A DNA stretch of 64,000 bases, taken from positions 72,443 to 136,442 of the forward strand of contig CAVRJV010000014.1 of NCBI GenBank assembly GCA_963721485.1, written 5' to 3'. Source of the stretch: an uncultured delta proteobacterium (lineage in GTDB: Bacteria > Desulfobacterota > Binatia > Binatales > Binataceae). Within the stretch, counting starts at the first letter, position 1, and each line of letters starts with the position of its first letter. Shown here piece by piece: positions 5,221 to 40,439 of the stretch. The notes under the pieces were generated by a model, which ran no database searches, had not been told where the DNA came from, and was given only the letters and a program-made list of their open reading frames with translations. A program made the position numbers and the translations under genes.

Positions 5221-6195
5221 TTAGTCCTGGCTGAAGTCGCGGCCGCGGACGATCGCGCTCGGGTTACGTTGCAGGTAGTCGGCGAGTTCCTTGACCGAGT
5301 GCGCGGCGGCTGAGACGTCCTGCAACGTCTGCAGCGCCTGGTAGTTGATCGGCGAGTTCGGCTCGATCGTGGTCTGCACGGTGCCAAGCGTTATCCGCGC
5401 CTGCTGCGCAGCGGCGTCGGCCGAGCTCGAAGTCTTCTGAATCGACAGTGACAGAGGCGGCACCTGGCCGTTCACCGTGTTGAGCGTCTGCTGCGCGCCG
5501 GCGAGAGTATGGTCGAGTTGCTCGCGCGTCTTCTCGGAATTGTTCACCACCTGCTTGAGCGCGGGCGAGTTAGTGATCTCCCTGATCGATTCCAGCATCC
5601 CGGTCATCTGCGTGACGACGGCGTTGAAGTCCACCTTGTCGAGCCGCTCGAAGATCCGGATTGCAACCGCCTGCGCCTGCTCGAGCGTGTTAGGCACCGC
5701 CGGAATTTCCTGGAGCGGCGCACCGGGCGGCGCGACCATCTGAATCGGTGTGTTGGGCTCGATGTCCAGGGCCACGTAGAGCAGGCCGGTGACGAAGCTG
5801 TCGGAGCCCAGCTGCGCGCGCAATCCCTCGCGAATCAGGTTGGGAATCGTGTGCGGGTCGCTCAAATCAAGACTGCTGCCGTGCGAGACGATTTTTTCCT
5901 CGTCGAGCTCGATGACCACCGGGATGCGTACGTCGGCGCGCAACTGGCCGCTCTGCTGATTGACCTCCTGCTCGAGGCGCAGGCGAATTTTGCTGACCTG
6001 GCCTATTTCGACGCCCTTGAACTTGACCGGCGCGCCGACCCGCAGGCCGTTGATGTCGCCGGCGAAGTAGATGACGAAATCGTGGGTCTTGCGGAACAGG
6101 TTGCCGGATCCGAAGACCACTACTGCCGCTAATATCAGCCCGATCGCGCCCAAAACGAACGCACCCACCGTAGCCGGATTGACTCGCTTACCCAT
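5221..6195 (-). CDS. mlaD: MlaD/PqiB-family MCE protein
   Basis: N-terminal TM, GLRVGAPVKFKGVEIGQV MCE motif, coiled coil, YLQRNPSAIVRG tail. Confidence 0.9.
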   Translation of the reverse strand: MGKRVNPATVGAFVLGAIGLILAAVVVFGSGNLFRKTHDFVIYFAGDINGLRVGAPVKFKGVEIGQVSKIRLRLEQEVNQQSGQLRADVRIPVVIELDEEKIVSHGSSLDLSDPHTIPNLIREGLRAQLGSDSFVTGLLYVALDIEPNTPIQMVAPPGAPLQEIPAVPNTLEQAQAVAIRIFERLDKVDFNAVVTQMTGMLESIREITNSPALKQVVNNSEKTREQLDHTLAGAQQTLNTVNGQVPPLSLSIQKTSSSADAAAQQARITLGTVQTTIEPNSPINYQALQTLQDVSAAAHSVKELADYLQRNPSAIVRGRDFSQD

Positions 6196-7043
6196 GGTCC
6201 CTCGCTGATTTTTCCGATTTGTTATCTTCTCCGCCGCGAGTCAGGAAAGTCCGCACGCGATTATCGGTGCTATGCGCAAGCAGGTCCTTCGGGTCGCCGT
6301 GCGCGATCATCGGTCTTGCTTTCCGCATCGAGAAAAATGCTGTTGTTGCCGATAGCGAAAATACTGGCCAGCTCGTGAGTGACGACGACCACCGTCGCGC
6401 CGAGGTTGTCGCGCAGCTCGAGGATCAAGTCGTCGAGCAGGCGCGAGCTAATCGGATCGAGGCCGGCCGACGGCTCGTCGAAGAAAAGTATTTCCGGGTC
6501 CAGCGCGATTGCGCGCGCGAGTCCCGCCCGCTTCTGCATCCCGCCGCTGATCTGGCTCGGGTAGTAGCCCTCGAAGCCCTTGAGCCCGACCAGCGCCAGC
6601 TTGAGCGAGGCCACCTCGCGAATCTCGGCCTGCGACAGGTCGGTGAATTCGCCGAGCGGCAGGCCGACGTTCTCCGCCAGCGTCATCGAGCTCCACAGCG
6701 CGCCGCCCTGGTACAGCACGCCGAAATGCCGCAGCATCTCTTCGCGCTGCTCGGGCTCGCCCTTGGTGAAATTGAAGTCGCCGTACCAGACTTCGCCCTT
6801 GGCCGGCTCGATCAGCCCGAGCATGTGGCGCAGCAGCGTGCTTTTGCCGCTGCCGCTGCCGCCCATGATGATGAAAATGTCGCCATGATTGACGGTGAAG
6901 TTGATGTCCTTCATCAGCACGAAGGTTCCGTACGCCATCGTGAGATTCTTGACGGTGATCGGCGGCGGGCCGCCCTTGGGGAATTTCGCCGCGGAGACCG
7001 GTTTCCCGTCCGAAGCATTGATGGATGGATGCGTGATGGCCAT
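6188..7043 (-). CDS. mlaF: MlaF-like ABC ATPase (frameshift ~6315)
   Basis: GGSGSGKS Walker A, ISGGMQKRAGLARA, FFDEPSAGLDP, VTHE. Confidence 0.9.
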
Positions 7044-31572: not shown

Positions 31573-34347
<2,775 letters not shown>

Positions 34348-34357
34348 ACGGGCGCGC

Positions 34358-34666
34358 CTACTGCATGTGACTACCGGCGGCGCCGGACATGGTCGAAGCG
34401 CTGGACGCGGCGCCGGCCGCCGGGGCGGTAGACTTCAGCGCGGGGTCGTCGCTCGCGACGCACTTGTAGAACGGCTGCAGTTTCTTCAGTTGCGCCTTAC
34501 AGCCATTTTCGGTCTTGAGCGTTTTGAATTTGATCCAATCCGACATCGGCGCCGTGGTATTCATCTTGTAATCGCCCGACGCATCCTTCACCGGCGGAAA
34601 AACCGGCGGCGGCAGCATCAGGTACCAGCTCATCAACACCATCGCAGTCGCATAACACTTTCGCAT
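34358..34666 (-). CDS. Small secreted protein with WYLMxPP...W...C...CxxSDDP motif
   Basis: Hydrophobic N-terminus, two mature-region Cys, low-complexity tail. Confidence 0.7.
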   Translation of the reverse strand: MRKCYATAMVLMSWYLMLPPPVFPPVKDASGDYKMNTTAPMSDWIKFKTLKTENGCKAQLKKLQPFYKCVASDDPALKSTAPAAGAASSASTMSGAAGSHMQ

Positions 34667-34718
34667 CCCCGATCAGTTACCGATTTTTTCGGCTGAATGC
34701 GATAGGCGCGAGATCGAT

Positions 34719-34761
34719 CTATGCCGGCTGCGGGGCGGCTGCGTCCAGGCGCACCGACGCG
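34719..34761 (-). repeat. Direct repeat C: displaced original 3' end of the phosphotransferase gene (ASVRLDAAAPQPA-TAG)
   Basis: 33/43 identical to 37992-38034; differences almost all synonymous. Confidence 0.9.
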
Positions 34762-34775
34762 TGAGTTCAGTCGGC

Positions 34776-34794
34776 TAAGCCGCAGTCCGGCTTA
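34776..34794 (-). terminator. Hairpin at the stop of the DHA2 gene
   Basis: TAAGCCG-cagtc-CGGCTTA. Confidence 0.45.
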
Positions 34795-36400
34795 CTCCCC
34801 GCCGATATGGGCGCCCTTCTCCGCTACCGAGCGGCGCATGAGCAGAACGAACAACACCAACATCAAGCCGACCGCAGCCGAAAAGGAGAAGACGTCAAAG
34901 TAGGCCAGTGACGAGGCCTGCTGAGCTCGCGACTGGTCGAGAACGCCCAACGCCATTTGATGTGACAATACAGCATCGCCGTTGTGCTGCAGGAAAAACG
35001 CCTGGCCCCGCGTCAACAGATTGTTGACCGGAGGGTTCAGGGGATCGAGGCTTTCATTCAGCCGCAGGGTATGAAACTGCTCGCGTCGTTCCTGAATAAT
35101 TTGAGCGACCGAAGTTCCCACGCTGCCGCCTTCGTTGCGCAGCAGAGCGAGCAATCCAACGGCGGCGCCGCGGATCTCCTTCGGTAGATAGATAAACGCT
35201 GCCACGTTAAGGGGCGCGAACAGCATCGACAACCCCGCGATGACCACCACCCTCGGCCACACCACCTGCCACGGACTGATATCGAGGTTGAGGAGAGCCA
35301 TCCAGTAGCTTCCCAGCGCCATCGTGAGTAGTCCGCCCGCCATCAGGTATCGGGCATCGACTCCGCGAGATAGCAGGGCGCCGACGACAACGAGCATGAT
35401 GATCGCGAAGATCCCTGATGGCGATAGAACCAAACCCGAAGTGGTGGCGTCGTAGCCAAAAAGTGACTGCAGCAAGGCGGGAAGCGAAATGGTGTTGGCG
35501 TAGAGCACTCCGTAAGCGCAGAAGATAATGACGCAGCAGATGCCAAAGTTTCGGTCGGCCATCGTCCGGAGCGCGACCAGTGGATTGCGCAGGTGCAATT
35601 CGCGATAGATCAAGCCGCCGAGGCCGAGCGAAGAACAGGATCAACAGCCCCTGCACGCGATAGAACGGATCGCCGAGCCAGTCCCACTGCTGCCCCTTGC
35701 TCAGCATGACCTCCCAGCAAACCATCGTCACAGCTAGCAGACAGAGGCCGAGCACATCGAAGGGTTCGCGTCGATTGCGACTCCTGGCCCGTTCAGCTTG
35801 GAGATATTCCGGATCTTCGACCAGCGCGTGGCACATCAAATAGGCCAACAGGCCGACCGGCACGTTCAGATAGAAGATCCAGCGCCAGCCGTAGTTGTCG
35901 GTGATATAGCCGCCGAGCGTTGGCCCGACAACCGGCGCGAGCAGTGCCGCCATCCCAAAGATCGTCATCGCCTGGCCTTGTTTCTCTTGCGGGAACGCAT
36001 CCAGCAGCACGGCCTGGCTGGAGGGTTGGAGACCACCGCCGGCCACACCCTGAAGCGCTCGAGATGCGATTATGAAGCCAAGGCTTCCGGCCATCCCGCA
36101 CAACGCGGACGCCAACGTAAAAATGGCTATCGAGGCCAGGAAATAGTTTCGCCTGCCCAGCCGCAGCGCGAGCCATCCGGAAATCGGCAGGATGATCGCA
36201 TTGGATGCGAGGTAAGTGGTGATGACCCACTCGCTGTCGACATTGGCAGCCGACAAGCCGCCGGCAATGTAACGCAAGGCAACATTCGCGATGGTGGTAT
36301 CCAGAACCTCCATGAAGGTCGGGATTACCACCGCAACCGCTATCAGCCAGGGATTGACCGATCGCCTCGCGAGCGGAACCTGGAGCGCTGCGGCACTCAT
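34792..36400 (-). CDS. emrB: DHA2 family MFS efflux permease, EmrB-like (frameshift ~35630)
   Basis: FMEVLDTTIANVAL, WVITTYL, GPTLGGYITDNYGWRWIFYLNVPVG, RNEGGSVG. Confidence 0.9.
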
Positions 36401-37905
36401 TGAGGGCAGGGGCAGAAACGGGACCAGTCGCGGATACTGAGGCTTGAAGCATCTTGCCGGCGTTCGGACCGGTAGGCGTCTCGTGGATGTACACGTACGG
36501 AGTGACCGATAGCCCGATGAACAGTGGAGCGACGTCAGGATCGTAGTTGGTCAATTCGATTCGCACCGGCAGCCGCTGCACAACCTTGACGAAGTTTCCG
36601 GTCGCATTCTCGGCCGGCAAAAGCGCCAGCGTAGATCCGGTTCCCATCGTGAATCCGGAAACGCGACCCTGAAAGTGCCGGTGACTGCCGTACATGTCGA
36701 CGTCGAGCTCGACCGGTTGTCCGATGCGCAGATTCGCCAGTTGCGTCTCCTTGAAGTTGGCGTCGACCCAAATATCGGTGAGAGATCGCAACGCCATCAG
36801 CCCCTGCCCGGCGATAACCTGATCGCCCGGGTTGACGTTGCGACGCGTCACGACACCGTCGATGTCGGCGACGACATCGCAATAGGAAAGGTTCAGCTTG
36901 GCTTGATCGAGATTGGCTTGGGCCTCATTCAACTTGGCCTCAGCCTGTTTGACGTCGGGTGCATTACTTGGAAATCTCATCGAAGATCGCATCGATATTG
37001 CCGGACGAGTCGCGCTTGTAGAACTCTGCGAGCATCTCGTCGGGAGACTCATTGAATGAATGAAAAGACCCGAGCTCGGCCGCAGTCTGCATGAGTCGCT
37101 CCTGGGCAACCTTGACCGCTGAATAAGTTTGGTCGAGATTCGCGGGGATGCCGCTCAGGTCATCGCCGTTCTTGGGTGTGGGTGGCAGCCCAAGTTCAGC
37201 GCGAACCTGCGCGACATCATGCTGAGCCTTCTGTTGCTGTGCCTGAGCTACCGAAAAGGCTTCCTGGAACGAATCGAACTCCTGTTTTGATATAACCTGC
37301 TGTTGGTATAGCTGCTGCTCCCGCCCGTAGTCGGCCTGGGCCTTGATGAGGGTGGCATTCGCGGCTTGAAGAGCGTCTACTTTGGAGTGCAGGTCGGCGA
37401 CCTGGTTGTTGAGGTTGTGCATCGCATTTGCCAGATCGAACCGTTGGCTGCGCGCCAAACTCTCAAGGCCCCGAACTTTCGCTTGTGCTGTGACAATGCC
37501 GGCCTGCGCGAGCGACAGCGCAGCTTGCGCGATATCGACCTTGACCTGGTACGGCTCCTTGTCAAGCTGCACAAGCAGCGCGCCCTTCCGCACCCGATTG
37601 TTGTCGTCCACCAGCACGCGCACGACTTGACCAGGCACCCGCGGCGCCACAAACGTCACGTGTCCGTTAACGTAGGCGTCGTCTGTTGACTCTGTTCTGA
37701 AGGCAGTGATGGCCCAGGGGATGGCCTCGTATAGCGCCAAAAGGACAAGCACACCGCCGGCGATCCACATCCACAGATGGCCGCCTTTGAGGCTGCTTCC
37801 CGGTTGGGGCTTGCGCGATTGGCGCATCGGCCTCGGCGTCGGTGCAGATGGCGCCGGTTCGTGGAGGGATTTGCCAGCGGACTCAGCTGAGTTTCCATCA
37901 GGCAT
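36397..37905 (-). CDS. emrA: HlyD/EmrA-family membrane fusion protein with long coiled coil (frameshift ~36965)
   Basis: STDDAYVNGH, WVDANFKETQL, PAENATGNFVKVVQRLPVRI. Confidence 0.9.
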
Positions 37906-37991
37906 TGGCTCGATCCTCCGTTAATTCACAACCGCAAGGCAACTGTACGATGTCCACGTTGCCCTGGCCGCAGAGCCGTTAACGTACGACC

Positions 37992-38034
37992 TCAGGCGGG
38001 CTGCGGCGACGCAGCGTCCAGGCGGACTGACGCG
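37992..38034 (-). repeat. Direct repeat D: replacement 3' end now used by the phosphotransferase gene (ASVRLDAASPQPA-TGA)
   Basis: Partner of 34719-34761. Confidence 0.9.
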
Positions 38035-39130
38035 CCGCTTTTGCGCGTCGCGTAGCGGCTGAGCAGCCGCACGACCGCGGGCGTGACTTCGTCGATCGCC
38101 TCGCGGCGGAAGCCGACGACCTCCGGGCCGCGCGCGCGCATCATGCCCATCATCGAGAGCCGCAGCAGCGCCGCGACCGCCTGGCAGTAGCGGAAGCGCT
38201 CGAAGTCCATCGGCGCCATCGCGTGGTAGAGCGGGATGTACAGCGCCGCGAAGCTGCGCGCGCAGCCCGTTGCCGACGAGGTTGTCGCGCATCCATCGCG
38301 GCTTCTCGAGCGCCGAGGACGACAGGATCACCGCCGTCATCGCGGCGTCGAGATGGCGATCGCCGACGTCGGTATTGACCCAATCGATCACGCCGGTCAC
38401 GCGCACTCCATCCACCACCACGTTCTGCGGATGATAGTCCATGTGCACCAGCGAATCCGGGCTGCGGCGGAATTTGGGCGCGCGCTCGGTGACGAGATTA
38501 AGCGCCTCGCGCAGGCCGGGCAGCGGGCCGTGTCTCGACGCGATTGGCGATTATCGCGAGCACGCGATCGAGCAGCGGCGAGCCGGCGCTCGGCGGCACC
38601 GATCGGGCGCATAGGCGCGCGGAATCTCGCGCAGGCCGGCGCTGCGCCGGATCGAATTTGTGGAGCTTCGATTGCGCGCGCACGAAGCGAGAAAAATCCC
38701 AGCGAGAAAGTTTTGAACGCGCTCGGAAAACTGCGCGTCGGCGAACAGCGGCCCGCCTGCGAGGCGCTGCATGATCAGAAACGGCGCGCCGAGGGCGCTG
38801 TGATCGGCCTCGAAGGCGTAGGGTCGCGGGACGCGGATAGCGCGCGGCGAACAGTCGATCGATCGTCAGTGTTCTCGCGCGCGCCCTTGGCGTCGGCGAG
38901 CGGAGCCCTGGTAGAAGCGCAGCACCATCGGCTACGCCGACCGGGATCTGCGGCGAAGCGACTTCGACGGCGCTGCGAGCGTGAATTCGAAGACCGTGGT
39001 CTCCCATCCGCTGGCAAGGACGCTCAAGCGCGCAACGCGGCGCGCCGAGATAAGTCGGCGAGGCGTTGCTCGATATCGGCGGGTCGAGCATCAGAAGGCG
39101 CGGGCAGAGAGTCCGCGCGAATCGCAGCGT
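37992..39130 (-). CDS. APH/choline-kinase-like phosphotransferase (heavily frameshifted; start approximate)
   Basis: SGWETTVF, HMDYHPQNV Brenner motif, GVIDW, GDRHLDAA. Confidence 0.75.
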
Positions 39131-39259
39131 AGTACAGGCTGGCGTCGCGCGCAATTGACCTGACACGCGTGTCAGGTGGGAGTCGCGCAGAACTCGGTTC
39201 TGATCGGATGCAGCGATCAACCGGATCGGCTGCTAGCCGAACTGCTGAGTCCGTCCTTG

Positions 39260-40439
39260 TCAGAACGTCCTGTGATGATGTGCGACGGCTGCGGCTTGCG
39301 ACAGTTGCATCGGGCTCGCGGCGTTCCTGCTCGGAGGTGGCAGCCTCTCGTTGGGCACCGTCTGGCCGTCTTTGTGGTAGTGCTGCTGCACGATCGATGA
39401 GAGCAACGGGCCGCTGCGATCGCTGAGATCGATCGCGACTTCGACCGACAGCCCCAGGCGCAGCGGTTTGTCTTCGGGCGACGTGCCCGTCGATGACAAT
39501 CTTAACCGGCACGCGCTGCACGACCTTGACCCAGTTGCCGGTCGCGTTCTCGGGCGGCAGCAGCGAGAACGCCGCGCCGGTGCCCATGCTGATCGAATCG
39601 ACGTGGCCCTTGTAGGTGTAGCCGGGATAGATGTCGGCGACGATCTCCGCCTTCTGCCCGACGCGCACGTCGGTGAGCTGGGTCTCCTTGAAATTCGCCG
39701 TGACGTAGAGCTTGCCGCAGCGGCACGATCGCCATCAGCGGCTCGCCGACCTGGACGCGATTGCCGACGTGGGCAGTCTTGTGGGTCACGACGCCGGCGA
39801 ACGGCGCCGTCAGCTTGGTGTAGTCGAGATCGAGTTTGGCTGCTTCCAGAGCCGCCTCGGCCTGCTTGACGACCGGACGGTCGTAGCGCGATTGGTCGTC
39901 GTACTGCGTGCCCGAGCGCGGCCTGCGGCCTGGGTCAACTGATGCTCCGCCAGCGCTTCATCGGCCACCGCGATGCGCAGGCCGGTGTCGGCCTGATCGT
40001 ATTGCTCGGCGGAAACGACGCCCTGTTCCTTCAACGACTTGGCGCGGTCGTAATCGATTTGCGCCTGCTTGAGCTGCGACTGCACCAGCGACACGCCCGA
40101 GCTTCGCGGCCTCGCACGCCGGCATAAAGCTCGTCGACCGACTGCTTTGCGCGATCGAGCTTGGCCTGCGCCTGATCGACCTTGACCTCGAAGTCGCGCG
40201 GGTCGAGGGTCAGCAGCAACTGGCCTTCCTTAACTGTCCAGTTGTCCTCGACGTAAACGTTGGTGACGGTGCCGGCCACGCGCGAGAGCAACCAGCGCGA
40301 CTGTGCCGTCAACATAAGCGTCGTCGGTGGTGACGTGGCTTTCGAGATATCCGTAGTAGTGAAAGGCGGGAATCGCGGCGGCGGCGATCGCAATGATCAC
40401 CACTACCAAGAGTACCCGGCGCACTAGCTGCGAGTTCAT
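39260..40439 (-). CDS. Second HlyD/EmrA-family membrane fusion protein (frameshifted)
   Basis: TTDDAYVDG, ANFKETQL, LLPPENATGNWVKVVQRVPVKI. Confidence 0.88.

Follow-up and report, generated by a model that had tools for sequence, protein, structure and literature searches.

A 3.23-kb islet carrying emrA and emrB is inserted into the 3' end of a kinase gene in the genome G000, which bears the window of 64,000 nucleotides (relatives' genomes are numbered G001 onwards, and emrAB loci carry the prefix L). Judged by its predicted products, an MFS pump and a periplasmic adaptor, together with a short leader and a tail, the islet is an accessory efflux cassette of the EmrAB type. It is bracketed by two copies of the kinase 3' end that look like natural alleles, it encodes no mobility function, and its counterparts occur in many different contexts in related species. 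With moderate confidence, we consider that the islet was placed by host recombination with DNA from a related lineage, either through homology-facilitated illegitimate recombination (HFIR) or through a single crossover of a circularised fragment.

The interrupted gene encodes an APH-family (phosphotransferase) kinase and lies at positions 37992..39090 (upper end approximate) on the (-) strand, as do all features described below. The kinase measures 361 aa in relatives, and the G001 ortholog matches PF01636 (APH) at 9.7e-29. Its native downstream neighbor in relatives is a small conserved ORF of 102 aa, which is found at 34358..34666 in the window and for whose G001 ortholog a Pfam/NCBIfam search gave no family. 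The native spacer that follows the kinase stop is located at 34667..34718, and matches the kinase-stop spacer in 15 of the 23 relatives' loci at 83-97% identity. The first-pass annotation had predicted empty sites in which the kinase tail of relatives runs directly into the small gene, and such sites were indeed encountered: in 18 of the 23 loci examined the kinase stop is followed immediately by the spacer or the small gene, G001, G007, G004, G011, and G021 show a 43-44 nt overlap of left flank and kinase, and a contig from a public soil run joins position 34713 to position 37990 with 7 letters between them. The opposite arrangement that had been envisaged, with emrAB at this position in all relatives and no duplicate, was not seen, as 42 of the 46 genus relatives searched gave a match to the kinase 3' end and not one of these had the cassette there. 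Moreover, the interval between the aconitase and kinase genes accommodates other cargo, as had also been anticipated, including 3.9 kb with a SBP_bac_3/Lig_chan (ligand-gated channel) gene and a YceI-like gene in G018 and 1.7 kb of DNA in G022, while 0.7 kb of extra DNA was found in G009, G016, and G023. None of the cargoes of this interval in G000, G018, and G022 includes mobility genes.

The last 13 codons of the kinase and its stop codon are present twice in direct orientation. The copy in use, at 37992..38034, reads ASVRLDAASPQPA followed by TGA, and the orphan copy, at 34719..34761, reads ASVRLDAAAPQPA followed by TAG and is contiguous with the native downstream flank. The copies are identical at 33 of 43 nt and at 12 of 13 residues, precisely as the earlier annotation had described them, and a repeat search of the window listed the pair as 39 nt at 82%. 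In a chance control the best in-register 43-mer reached 27-30 of 43 positions, and 33 was reached in none of 20 dinucleotide shuffles of the region 33500-39500. The longest identical run in the shared 43-nt tail (77% identity) is 11 nt. The ten differences are distributed over the three codon positions as 1, 1, and 8 (probability of at least 8 of 10 in the third position, given an expectation of 1/3, 0.0034). This third-position excess had been pointed out before, and it supports the proposal that the kinase end in use has diverged from the displaced one and is a variant 'recoded' by synonymous changes. An origin of the pair by tandem duplication in G000 was rejected, since the orphan tail is contiguous with the native flank of the kinase, as it is at the empty sites.

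Both kinase tails look like natural alleles when compared with those of relatives, in that each tail type is found as the single native tail in different relatives. Among native tails, those of G007 (36 of 39 nt), G011b, and G004 come nearest to the orphan tail, whose TAG stop recurs in G060; the copy in use is of the Ala-Ala-Ser type, which G049, G011a, and G021 likewise have natively. If the tails are natural alleles of different relatives, one of them would have come from another lineage. The first-pass annotation had additionally set host-like codons in the orphan against atypical ones in the copy in use, an argument that did not hold, as G011 and G021 likewise have TCA and GCT in their native tails. 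A stretch of 43 nt is too short to tell the resident tail from the incoming one, and codon choice is no guide either. A sliding-window comparison of the kinase with 20 relatives, in which a mosaic boundary was sought, revealed no switch of the nearest relative at any point.

Only emrB, emrA, and 119 nt of non-coding DNA lie between the two tails; neither the ORF list nor domain searches show another gene, which agrees with the initial description. The GC content is 0.55-0.62 within the islet, versus 0.65-0.71 outside. The emrB gene (34792..36400) is predicted to encode a DHA2-family MFS efflux permease, which measures 535 aa in intact orthologs and is split here by an extra base at 35630; its G018 ortholog (93% DNA identity to G000) scored 388.2 bits on TIGR00711 (cut-off 230.2) and matched MFS_1 at 1.2e-52. 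The emrA gene (about 36397..37905) is predicted to encode an EmrA/HlyD-family periplasmic adaptor of approximately 502 aa in orthologs, and is likewise split by indels; the G018 ortholog matched HlyD_D23, HlyD_3, and CusB_dom_1 above the Pfam cut-offs and reached 255.7 bits on TIGR00998, under its cut-off of 390.8 bits. The order of adaptor followed by pump with a 4-nt overlap is seen in L015.

At the left joint, 34761/34762, the islet ends with a cassette 3' tail of 30 nt that follows the emrB stop (34762..34791) and is common to cassette copies at other loci, and the alignment match reaches 34760-34761 in G006, G002, L051, L054, and L066. The 2-nt microhomology (CG) between the cassette (...CTCACG) and the kinase (...GGCG) at this joint is at chance level. 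On the other side, emrA is preceded by a conserved leader of 48 nt with a ribosome-binding site (37906..37953), in which matches to relatives run out between 37918 and 37953; the seven loci that extend to 37953 go on alike among themselves for at least 35 nt more, a stretch that is absent from G000. Between this leader and the kinase stop, G000 has a joint filler of 38 nt (37954..37991), for which a comparison with the G000 genome and all retrieved loci gave nothing beyond words of 11-16 nt. The filler has an 11-nt word in common with emrA (window positions 37664-37674), and its 9 nt beside the stop codon bear a weak similarity to the sequence that natively follows the stop in G054, G060, and G049. 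The emrAB pair lies 86 nt past the kinase stop on the same strand, and may be read through from the kinase operon.

The emrA, emrB, and kinase genes are all frameshifted in this assembly, which the first-pass annotation had overlooked. Indels were located in emrA at 36406, 36966, 37776, and 37834, the emrB indel at 35630 is specific to G000 and absent from short-read contigs, and the kinase is read in three frames owing to 15 G000-specific indel columns in 1.2 kb, compared with 15 such columns in the 3.3-kb left flank and 5 in the cassette. These frameshifts are caused by genome-wide single-base errors of the assembly and are not signs of gene decay. It is nevertheless very improbable that the islet itself is an artefact, in the form of a contig fused, in an error-prone long-read metagenome assembly, from strains or species that occur together and have the cassette in common. 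Such a chimera would be consistent with the state of G000, which is 63% complete in 14 contigs with many single-base errors, with the abundance of the cassette in soil runs and its occurrence in several species, and with the lack of either junction pattern among JGI metagenome contigs, where two scans for the exact patterns gave 0 matches, a result that an assembly error within the pattern would also give. Against it, the flanks belong together as the left and right parts of a single locus that is uninterrupted in relatives, whereas a mis-join would link different loci; a 43-nt repeat at 77% could not drive a false overlap; and both joints are clean, with an orphan tail that is a plausible native allele. 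Twenty public runs contain about a fifth of the sampled words, and the contigs of four runs gave thin cover over 34441-34722 and 37966-38106 with no listed contig across either junction, which is uninformative.

The same cassette is found at other places in 13 of the 46 relatives, with 89-95% identity, and the 23 species representatives that have it display 21 different neighbor combinations. G000 itself contains a single copy, and has empty sites where G018 and G006 bear the cassette. The cassette is 93-95% identical to that of the best relatives, versus at most 88% for the best housekeeping block in a genome that is without a close relative, and third-position identities amount to 85-90% for emrA, 78-86% for emrB, and 75-82% for aconitase and kinase. 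The cassette circulates among species of one soil genus; the records of these relatives are labelled Candidatus Binataceae or 'uncultured delta proteobacterium'. In relatives it is often part of larger accessory blocks, with NmrA-like, aldo-keto reductase, MAPEG, and FUSC genes, and it is sometimes near IS or integrase genes, as in L057, where a tyrosine integrase gene lies 660 nt upstream of emrA. The alternative that many ancestral copies were differentially lost was dismissed as unparsimonious given 21 contexts among 23 loci, and plasmid carriage was also discarded, as the best plasmid match was 68% identical over 70% of the cassette and no close relative of the cassette is plasmid-borne.

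None of the 23 other high-identity copies of the cassette contains kinase-like sequence, and neither the kinase nor the small gene occurs within 4 kb of emrB in any of 78 loci from species-representative genomes. Moreover, the cassette ends are ragged, falling at 37918-37953 on one side and at 34793 or 34760 on the other. The initial idea of a dedicated element that integrates and supplies the replacement end itself is not supported, in view of these 23 copies without kinase sequence, the 21 contexts, the ragged ends, and the use of the site in 0 of 42 relatives.

The absence of an integrase from the islet, already recorded in the first-pass annotation, was confirmed by ORF inspection and domain search, and all nine PF00589 matches of G000 are outside the window. 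A repeat search detected no terminal inverted repeats and no inverted pair joining the islet ends, and the islet holds no transposase ORF; a transposon or IS unit was rejected on these grounds and because a repeat of 43 nt with 23% divergence is neither short nor identical. An integron cassette with attC was rejected as well, with end-region folds at z = 0.26 and -0.02 relative to shuffles, ragged ends, and no integrase in the window. In addition, no tRNA genes were found beside six cassette loci, no Rfam families in 34000-39500, and promoter and terminator scans gave no more matches than in shuffles.

Direct repeats that bracket emrAB were detected at 5 of 54 further loci (L052, L075, L092, L105, and L118), which represent about 4 independent events, since L092 and L105 are one orthologous locus. 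Three controls with shifted brackets had 0, 2, and 0 positives out of 54, the 2 being due to a paralogous HlyD gene, and randomly placed brackets gave 1 of 447 in G000, a single error-prone genome. The L052 repeat (186 nt, 95%) consists of the last 59 codons and stop of the upstream cupin gene, and the L075 repeat (about 100 nt, 77%) of the end and terminator of the upstream amidohydrolase gene. The differences between the L052 copies are distributed over the codon positions as 5, 0, and 3, without synonymous bias, so that the L052 repeat could be a later duplication. One of the other emrAB loci with this footprint is located in a MAG labelled Acidobacteriaceae.

The insertion that we favor would have started from a donor molecule of another lineage of the genus, in which the kinase 3' end of that lineage was joined to emrAB. 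The donor kinase end would have paired with the resident kinase end, with one joint forming in or near the kinase-end homology and the other, at 34761/34762, arising illegitimately where the 2 nt of microhomology lie, 43 nt upstream of the stop codon of the resident gene. This outcome could be reached equally by HFIR, with a linear fragment, or by a Campbell-type single crossover, with a circularised one. In either case the kinase would retain an end that is complete and allelic, emrB would be followed by the stranded final 13 codons of the other allele, and no neighboring gene would be lost. In favor of this course of events, the allelic copies, each matched in relatives, and the synonymous pattern of their differences point to a donor-type homologous boundary. 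Counting against it, the shared tail, short and diverged as it is, would hardly serve for a RecA crossover within it; further into the kinase, no mosaic boundary appears; the microhomology does not exceed chance; the 38-nt filler is not accounted for; and the enrichment of bracket repeats draws on those few independent events. The donor arrangement, with cargo beside the anchor gene, was absent from the 46 genus genomes and the 78 species-representative emrB loci.

A bolder version, which we regard as possible and put forward tentatively, is that emrAB is a recombinase-free cassette carrying its own homology arm. The fragment or circle would keep the 3' end of the upstream gene of its last host, and this captured end would act as a homing arm that crosses into the ortholog in the next host. 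The gene would thereby be restored with the donor allele while the resident end is stranded behind emrB, and the next circle would be set free when the brackets recombine with each other. Footprints of this cycle would be seen in the bracket repeats of G000, L052, L075, L118, and L092/L105.

The first-pass annotation had offered three origins for the islet, namely mobilization in trans, reduction after integration, and homology-facilitated recombination from a related strain; the third fits best, and the first two fare poorly. A site-specific islet mobilized in trans would carry, beside emrA, an attP-like 43-nt tail, and a tyrosine or serine recombinase encoded elsewhere would integrate the circular cassette into the kinase end, in the manner of e14 at icd. 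The duplicated target 3' end, the restoration of the gene by a synonymously diverged copy, and the orphan end on the far side would all be accounted for, e14, icd, and icdC provide a parallel (described in PMC13626634), and the nine PF00589 matches elsewhere in G000 and the integrase gene of one relative (L057) also speak for it. Mobilization in trans is nonetheless unlikely, considering that the site is occupied in 0 of 42 relatives with a matched kinase end, that kinase-like sequence lies beside the cassette in 0 of 78 loci, that the cassette ends are ragged with no integrase in the window, and that the bracket repeats of other loci derive from different genes (cupin, amidohydrolase) and not from a single att site. 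An islet that is the remnant of a larger integrase-bearing island or prophage in the kinase end, later reduced to emrAB, would share the duplicated and diverged target end that is typical of such elements according to the account in PMC13626634, and would fit the larger accessory blocks and the occasional IS or integrase genes around the cassette in relatives. This origin is decidedly improbable, as the DNA between the repeats is nearly all conserved cassette with 38 nt unaccounted for, and deletions would have needed to stop precisely at the cassette ends, on the left as well as on the right. Least credible is a duplication of the target in situ, by a staggered cut or template switch, as the cassette moved within the G000 lineage, followed by divergence of the copies. 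G000 does have a single cassette copy and insertions commonly bring target duplications, but the copies are 23% diverged with 8 of 10 changes in the third position, whereas decay of an orphan would ignore codon position; furthermore, such divergence would predate the species, yet the insertion is found in no relative.

Homology-facilitated insertion is well documented in the laboratory, and has rarely been pinned down in natural genomes. Recombination with a related lineage would make the islet a natural case of this process, by which an efflux module spreads among uncultured soil bacteria (Binataceae) without integrase, transposase, or plasmid, the homology being limited to a short piece of an adjacent gene. 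As the same footprint is seen at other emrAB loci, this may be a general route for the movement of accessory transporter genes. For genome annotation, the warning is that orphan gene ends beside accessory genes can mark homology-driven insertions.

With respect to its cargo, the islet resembles E. coli EmrAB (with TolC) and the DHA2 MFS tripartite pumps, in which the pump gene likewise follows the adaptor gene and the stop codon of the one overlaps the start codon of the other; emrB scores above the cut-off of the DHA2 family model TIGR00711, and emrA has HlyD/EmrA domains. It differs from E. coli EmrAB in that emrA remains below the curated EmrA/EmrK cut-off (255.7 vs 390.8 bits) and in that a FUSC (AaeB-like) gene lies directly upstream of the cassette in 7 relatives. 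The presence of different cassettes without mobility genes in the same interval, here that between aconitase and kinase, is reminiscent of the minimal mobile elements of Neisseria, as they are defined in PMC3082526, which cites Saunders and Snyder 2002. Those elements involve double crossovers in both flanking genes and no duplicated end, whereas in G000 one joint lies inside a gene and has created an orphan end.

The E. coli icd gene is the insertion site of phage 21 as well as of the e14 prophage. The account of e14 and the icdC pseudogene in PMC13626634, where Hill, Gray and Brody 1989 is cited, describes an insert in the 3' end of a protein gene, in which the copy that was brought in completes the gene, the displaced original end persists as an orphan beyond the insert, and the two differ largely by synonymous changes, all as in G000. 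The e14 prophage has its own integrase and undergoes site-specific excision, whereas the islet is without a recombinase. A further difference from e14 is that emrAB copies elsewhere have no kinase-like arm, and that no other genome uses the site.

The closest counterparts are HFIR and the single crossover of circles, which, as far as they are described in PMC3240628 and PMC5361080, share with the islet a single homologous anchor, the lack of a mobility gene, and the displacement of old 3' parts that are kept as orphans. HFIR with a homologous anchor has been proposed in PMC5361080 for the orphan arrays of V. cholerae T6SS clusters, and the original HFIR work, as cited there, was performed in Acinetobacter, S. 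pneumoniae, and P. stutzeri. Here, in contrast, the event is deduced from natural genomes of an uncultured phylum, the visible anchor is only 43 nt at 77%, and the cargo is an efflux pump and not a toxin-immunity module. Moreover, HFIR usually deletes recipient DNA, whereas in G000 recipient DNA is duplicated. The single crossover of circles in E. coli, for which PMC3240628 gives duplications of 109-950 bp, resembles the islet in this respect, as the homologous segment is duplicated on both sides of the insert.

The 3' end of the gene encoding the APH-family kinase is present twice in the window, in direct orientation, and an emrB-emrA efflux pair (the cassette) lies between the copies. The tail in use, which forms the present end of the kinase gene, is located at 37992-38034 (minus strand) and reads ASVRLDAASPQPA-TGA, and the orphan tail, stranded beyond emrB at 34719-34761 (minus strand), reads ASVRLDAAAPQPA-TAG. 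As the first-pass annotation had described, the copies agree in 33/43 nt and 12/13 residues; a repeat search recovered them as a 39-nt direct pair at 82% identity with a spacing of 3273 nt, and when 33500-39500 was dinucleotide-shuffled 20 times, the top in-register 43-mers scored 27-30/43 and never 33. Of the 10 differences, one each affects the first and second codon positions and 8 affect the third (P = 0.0034 for at least 8 there), indicating that both copies diverged while coding and, thus, originated in two lineages. GC content is 0.55-0.62 between the tails versus 0.65-0.71 outside. The source genome (G000) contains these two copies only, and its genus relatives contain one apiece. Both tail versions are native alleles in relatives: the Ala-Ala-Ser type in G049, G011a, and G021, and the Ala-Ala-Ala type in G007, which matches the orphan tail in 36/39 nt; in G060 a TAG stop is found with similar sequence after it. 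The orphan tail is contiguous with the conserved spacer, beyond which lies the small gene (the native downstream neighbor of the kinase), and the tail in use is contiguous with the kinase body. The earlier codon-usage argument for the host's own copy fails. A length of 43 nt and a genus that is star-like in housekeeping-block comparison are insufficient to assign it. When the kinase was compared with 20 relatives in sliding windows, its nearest relative did not change.

A kinase 3' end was matched in 42 of the 46 other genus genomes (40/44 without the unpublished G019 and G024), and these matches begin at the stop codon or a few bases off (query 335-386 of 701), none of them extending into the cassette. 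For G001, G007, G004, G011, and G021, the left-flank match stops at 34761 and the kinase match starts at 37991-37992, with an overlap of 43-44 nt that is exactly the repeat. The native spacer starts at most 16 nt from the kinase stop in 15 of 23 fetched loci, and the small gene adjoins the stop in 3 more. The empty site that had been predicted, with the kinase tail followed by the small gene, is therefore present in these loci, as well as in a contig of a public soil run (X2) in which 34713 is joined to 37990 with 7 letters between. Other cargo, for which a search had been suggested, was encountered in the aconitase-kinase interval. In G018 (L016:5179-9103) a 3.9-kb block with a SBP_bac_3/Lig_chan channel gene and a YceI-like gene takes the place of most of the small ORF, G022 (L023:574-2252) carries 1.7 kb without family matches, and G009 (L022:586-1291), G016, and G023 each have approximately 0.7 kb extra.

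The emrB, emrA, and kinase genes are each spread over two or three frames in G000, the assembly of which consists of 14 contigs with a marker completeness of 63%; the window corresponds to C14:72443-136442 of this assembly. Alignment with relatives revealed 5 G000-specific single-base indels in the 3.1-kb cassette, and 15 G000-specific indel columns each in 3.3 kb of the left (aconitase) flank and in 1.2 kb of the kinase. Since short-read soil contigs do not have the extra or missing bases at 35630, 36403-36411, 36966, 37776, 37833, and 38256, the frameshifts are assembly errors and not gene decay. Many single-base insertions private to G000 occur throughout the window (e.g., 32329-34184 and 38256-39078), so most genes of this MAG will look frameshifted, and indel errors probably account for its completeness score.

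Protein families were assigned on intact orthologs, those of the cassette genes being taken from G018 and those of the native locus from G001. The emrB ortholog (535 aa) matched MFS_1 at 1.2e-52 and reached 388 bits with the DHA2 model TIGR00711, exceeding the cut-off of 230 bits. The emrA ortholog (459-502 aa) contains HlyD_D23, HlyD_3, and CusB_dom_1 domains and scored 255.7 bits against the curated EmrA/EmrK model, below the cut-off of 390.8 bits. In G001 the native locus comprises aconitase (plus strand), the small gene (a 102-aa ORF on the minus strand, no family match), the kinase (361 aa; PF01636, 9.7e-29), and a second, paralogous EmrA-like adaptor (390 aa; TIGR00998, 289 bits). In G000 this adaptor lies upstream of the kinase at 39180-40370 (minus strand) as part of the native kinase operon, and shows approximately 69% identity to the cassette emrA over some 200 nt; among the genes examined no MFS partner for it was identified.

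The stretch 34793-37953 was detected in 13 of the 46 genus relatives at 89-93% identity, never at the kinase site. The flanks of the G018 cassette map to C14:1055079 and 1055178 of G000, and those of the G006 cassette to C14:589042 and 589105; this adjacent mapping shows that G000 is empty where G018 and G006 are filled. A scan of species-representative genomes yielded 78 emrB loci, 23 of which have the whole cassette at a DNA identity of at least 86%. Their immediate neighbors form 13 upstream and 13 downstream clusters in 21 combinations, including a FUSC/AaeB-like gene immediately upstream in 7 loci (L060 and six others), a NmrA-like gene, MAPEG, and an aldo-keto reductase on either side. 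The latter is located downstream in L047, L053, and L088 and upstream in L106 and L066, and the FUSC/AaeB-like gene is downstream of emrAB in L088, unlike the seven upstream cases; such side-switching resembles what circular permutation or local module hopping would produce. Near the cassette, an IS3-type (rve) transposase was found in L066 (6420-7229) and an IS1595-type transposase in L051 (682-1608), and a tyrosine integrase is encoded 660 nt upstream of it in L057 (524-1804).

Identity of the cassette to its best relatives is 93-95%, and housekeeping blocks of G000 are at most 88% identical to those of other genus genomes. At third codon positions G000 is 85-90% (emrA), 78-86% (emrB), and 75-82% (aconitase and kinase) identical to G018, G004, and G007, which modestly supports exchange of the cassette after speciation. 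Over 34793-37931 the G000 copy is 89-93% identical to each of eight relatives, the copies of which are 85-92% identical among themselves; this near-consensus character could reflect a short branch or a mixed-strain consensus in the assembly. G043 (L144, G043:C402, 807-1328) contains only the last 522 nt of emrB (91%), beside a NmrA-like and cupin pair, and this piece appears to be what a deletion has left of the cassette. Close relatives of emrB also occur in MAGs labelled as other phyla (L051, L073, L083, L086, and L096), with amino acid identities of 96% for Terriglobales, 83% for Acidobacteriaceae, and 72-76% for Tepidisphaeraceae, Chthoniobacteraceae, and Phycisphaerales labels, as a result of either cross-phylum transfer or binning error.

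The cassette ends are ragged, varying over 37918-37953 on the emrA side and falling, on the emrB side, either at the stop codon or some 33 nt past it. Around the left joint, the sequence is ...CTGAACTCACG|TGAT in other cassettes, ...GGCG|CGTC in the kinase, and ...CTCACG|CGTCGG in G000, so that only CG is common to both sources. At the right joint the cassette leader ends at 37953, and seven relatives share at least 35 nt further. The 38-nt filler that follows has no match anywhere searched, and its 9 nt beside the kinase stop bear a weak resemblance to what comes after the stop in relatives. One 11-nt word of it, CCGTTAACGTA (37976-37986), is repeated on the same strand within emrA (37664-37674), at a distance of some 300 nt, where it is conserved in most cassette copies; it may be templated filler or chance. 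Between the tails no integrase was found, as had been claimed before, nor a transposase, inverted terminal repeat, tRNA, Rfam family, or unusually stable fold.

Bracketing repeats were sought at 54 emrB loci, each spanning 9 kb or more, by comparing 1 kb before emrA with 1 kb after emrB (E ≤ 1e-10, for which the 43-nt repeat of G000 itself is too short). Direct repeats bracket emrAB in 5/54 loci (L052, L075, L092, L105, and L118), representing only about 4 independent events; same-spacing controls gave 0/54, 2/54 (a paralogous HlyD gene in L092/L105), and 0/54, and random brackets in the G000 genome 1/447. The L052 repeat (2224-2409 and 5611-5795; 186 nt, 95%) comprises the final 59 codons and stop of an upstream same-strand cupin gene plus 7 nt; its orphan copy, with 1 nt deleted, begins 3 nt past the emrB stop, and the differences by codon position (5, 0, 3) display no third-position bias. 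In L075 (2254-2350 and 5615-5714; approximately 100 nt, 77%) it is the 3' part of an upstream amidohydrolase gene (the last 11 or so codons, stop, and terminator hairpin) that is repeated; the orphan copy begins 7 nt past the emrB stop. L092 and L105 represent one orthologous locus with a non-coding repeat of 80-90 nt (82-86%), and in L118, from a MAG labelled Acidobacteriaceae, repeats of about 470 nt at about 90% (1481-1947 and 6460-6925) enclose a 5-kb unit with a distant emrAB pair (58% aa).

Judged from sequence comparison, the insertion and the allelic replacement end proposed by the first-pass annotation are real, and the best-supported explanation is insertion driven by homology, with no recombinase dedicated to it. 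DNA in which the kinase end of another lineage was joined to emrAB would have recombined with the resident counterpart of that end, through one homologous joint and one illegitimate one. The incoming molecule could have been a linear fragment, through homology-facilitated illegitimate recombination (HFIR), or a circle entering by single crossover. Both routes have precedents: anchored HFIR has been put forward for orphan immunity-gene arrays and is also said to account for orphaned 3' regions of rhs loci (PMC5361080), and in E. coli single crossovers of circles resulted in duplications of 109-950 bp (PMC3240628). However, the donor arrangement, with the kinase or small gene next to emrAB, was absent at the 78 emrB loci and the 42 kinase ends of relatives, the visible homology is short and diverged, and the 38-nt filler is unexplained. 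The recurrent bracket repeats leave room for a further reading, in which the cassette would bring along a homology arm of its own as it passes between hosts. Following homology-driven insertion the kinase would retain a full-length end. The emrAB pair lies 86 nt behind the kinase on the same strand with part of its usual leader missing, so that co-transcription with the kinase operon, in which an EmrA-like adaptor is already encoded, is possible.

The self-contained integrating element that had also been proposed is not supported. The e14/icd/icdC system has the same architecture as the G000 insert but depends on its own integrase (PMC13626634), which the insert does not have; repeated use of one site, expected of this type, was not seen at the kinase ends matched in the 42 relatives. 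The aconitase-kinase interval also behaves as the site of a minimal mobile element as defined in PMC3082526, but such elements leave no duplicated gene end, whereas the G000 insert does.
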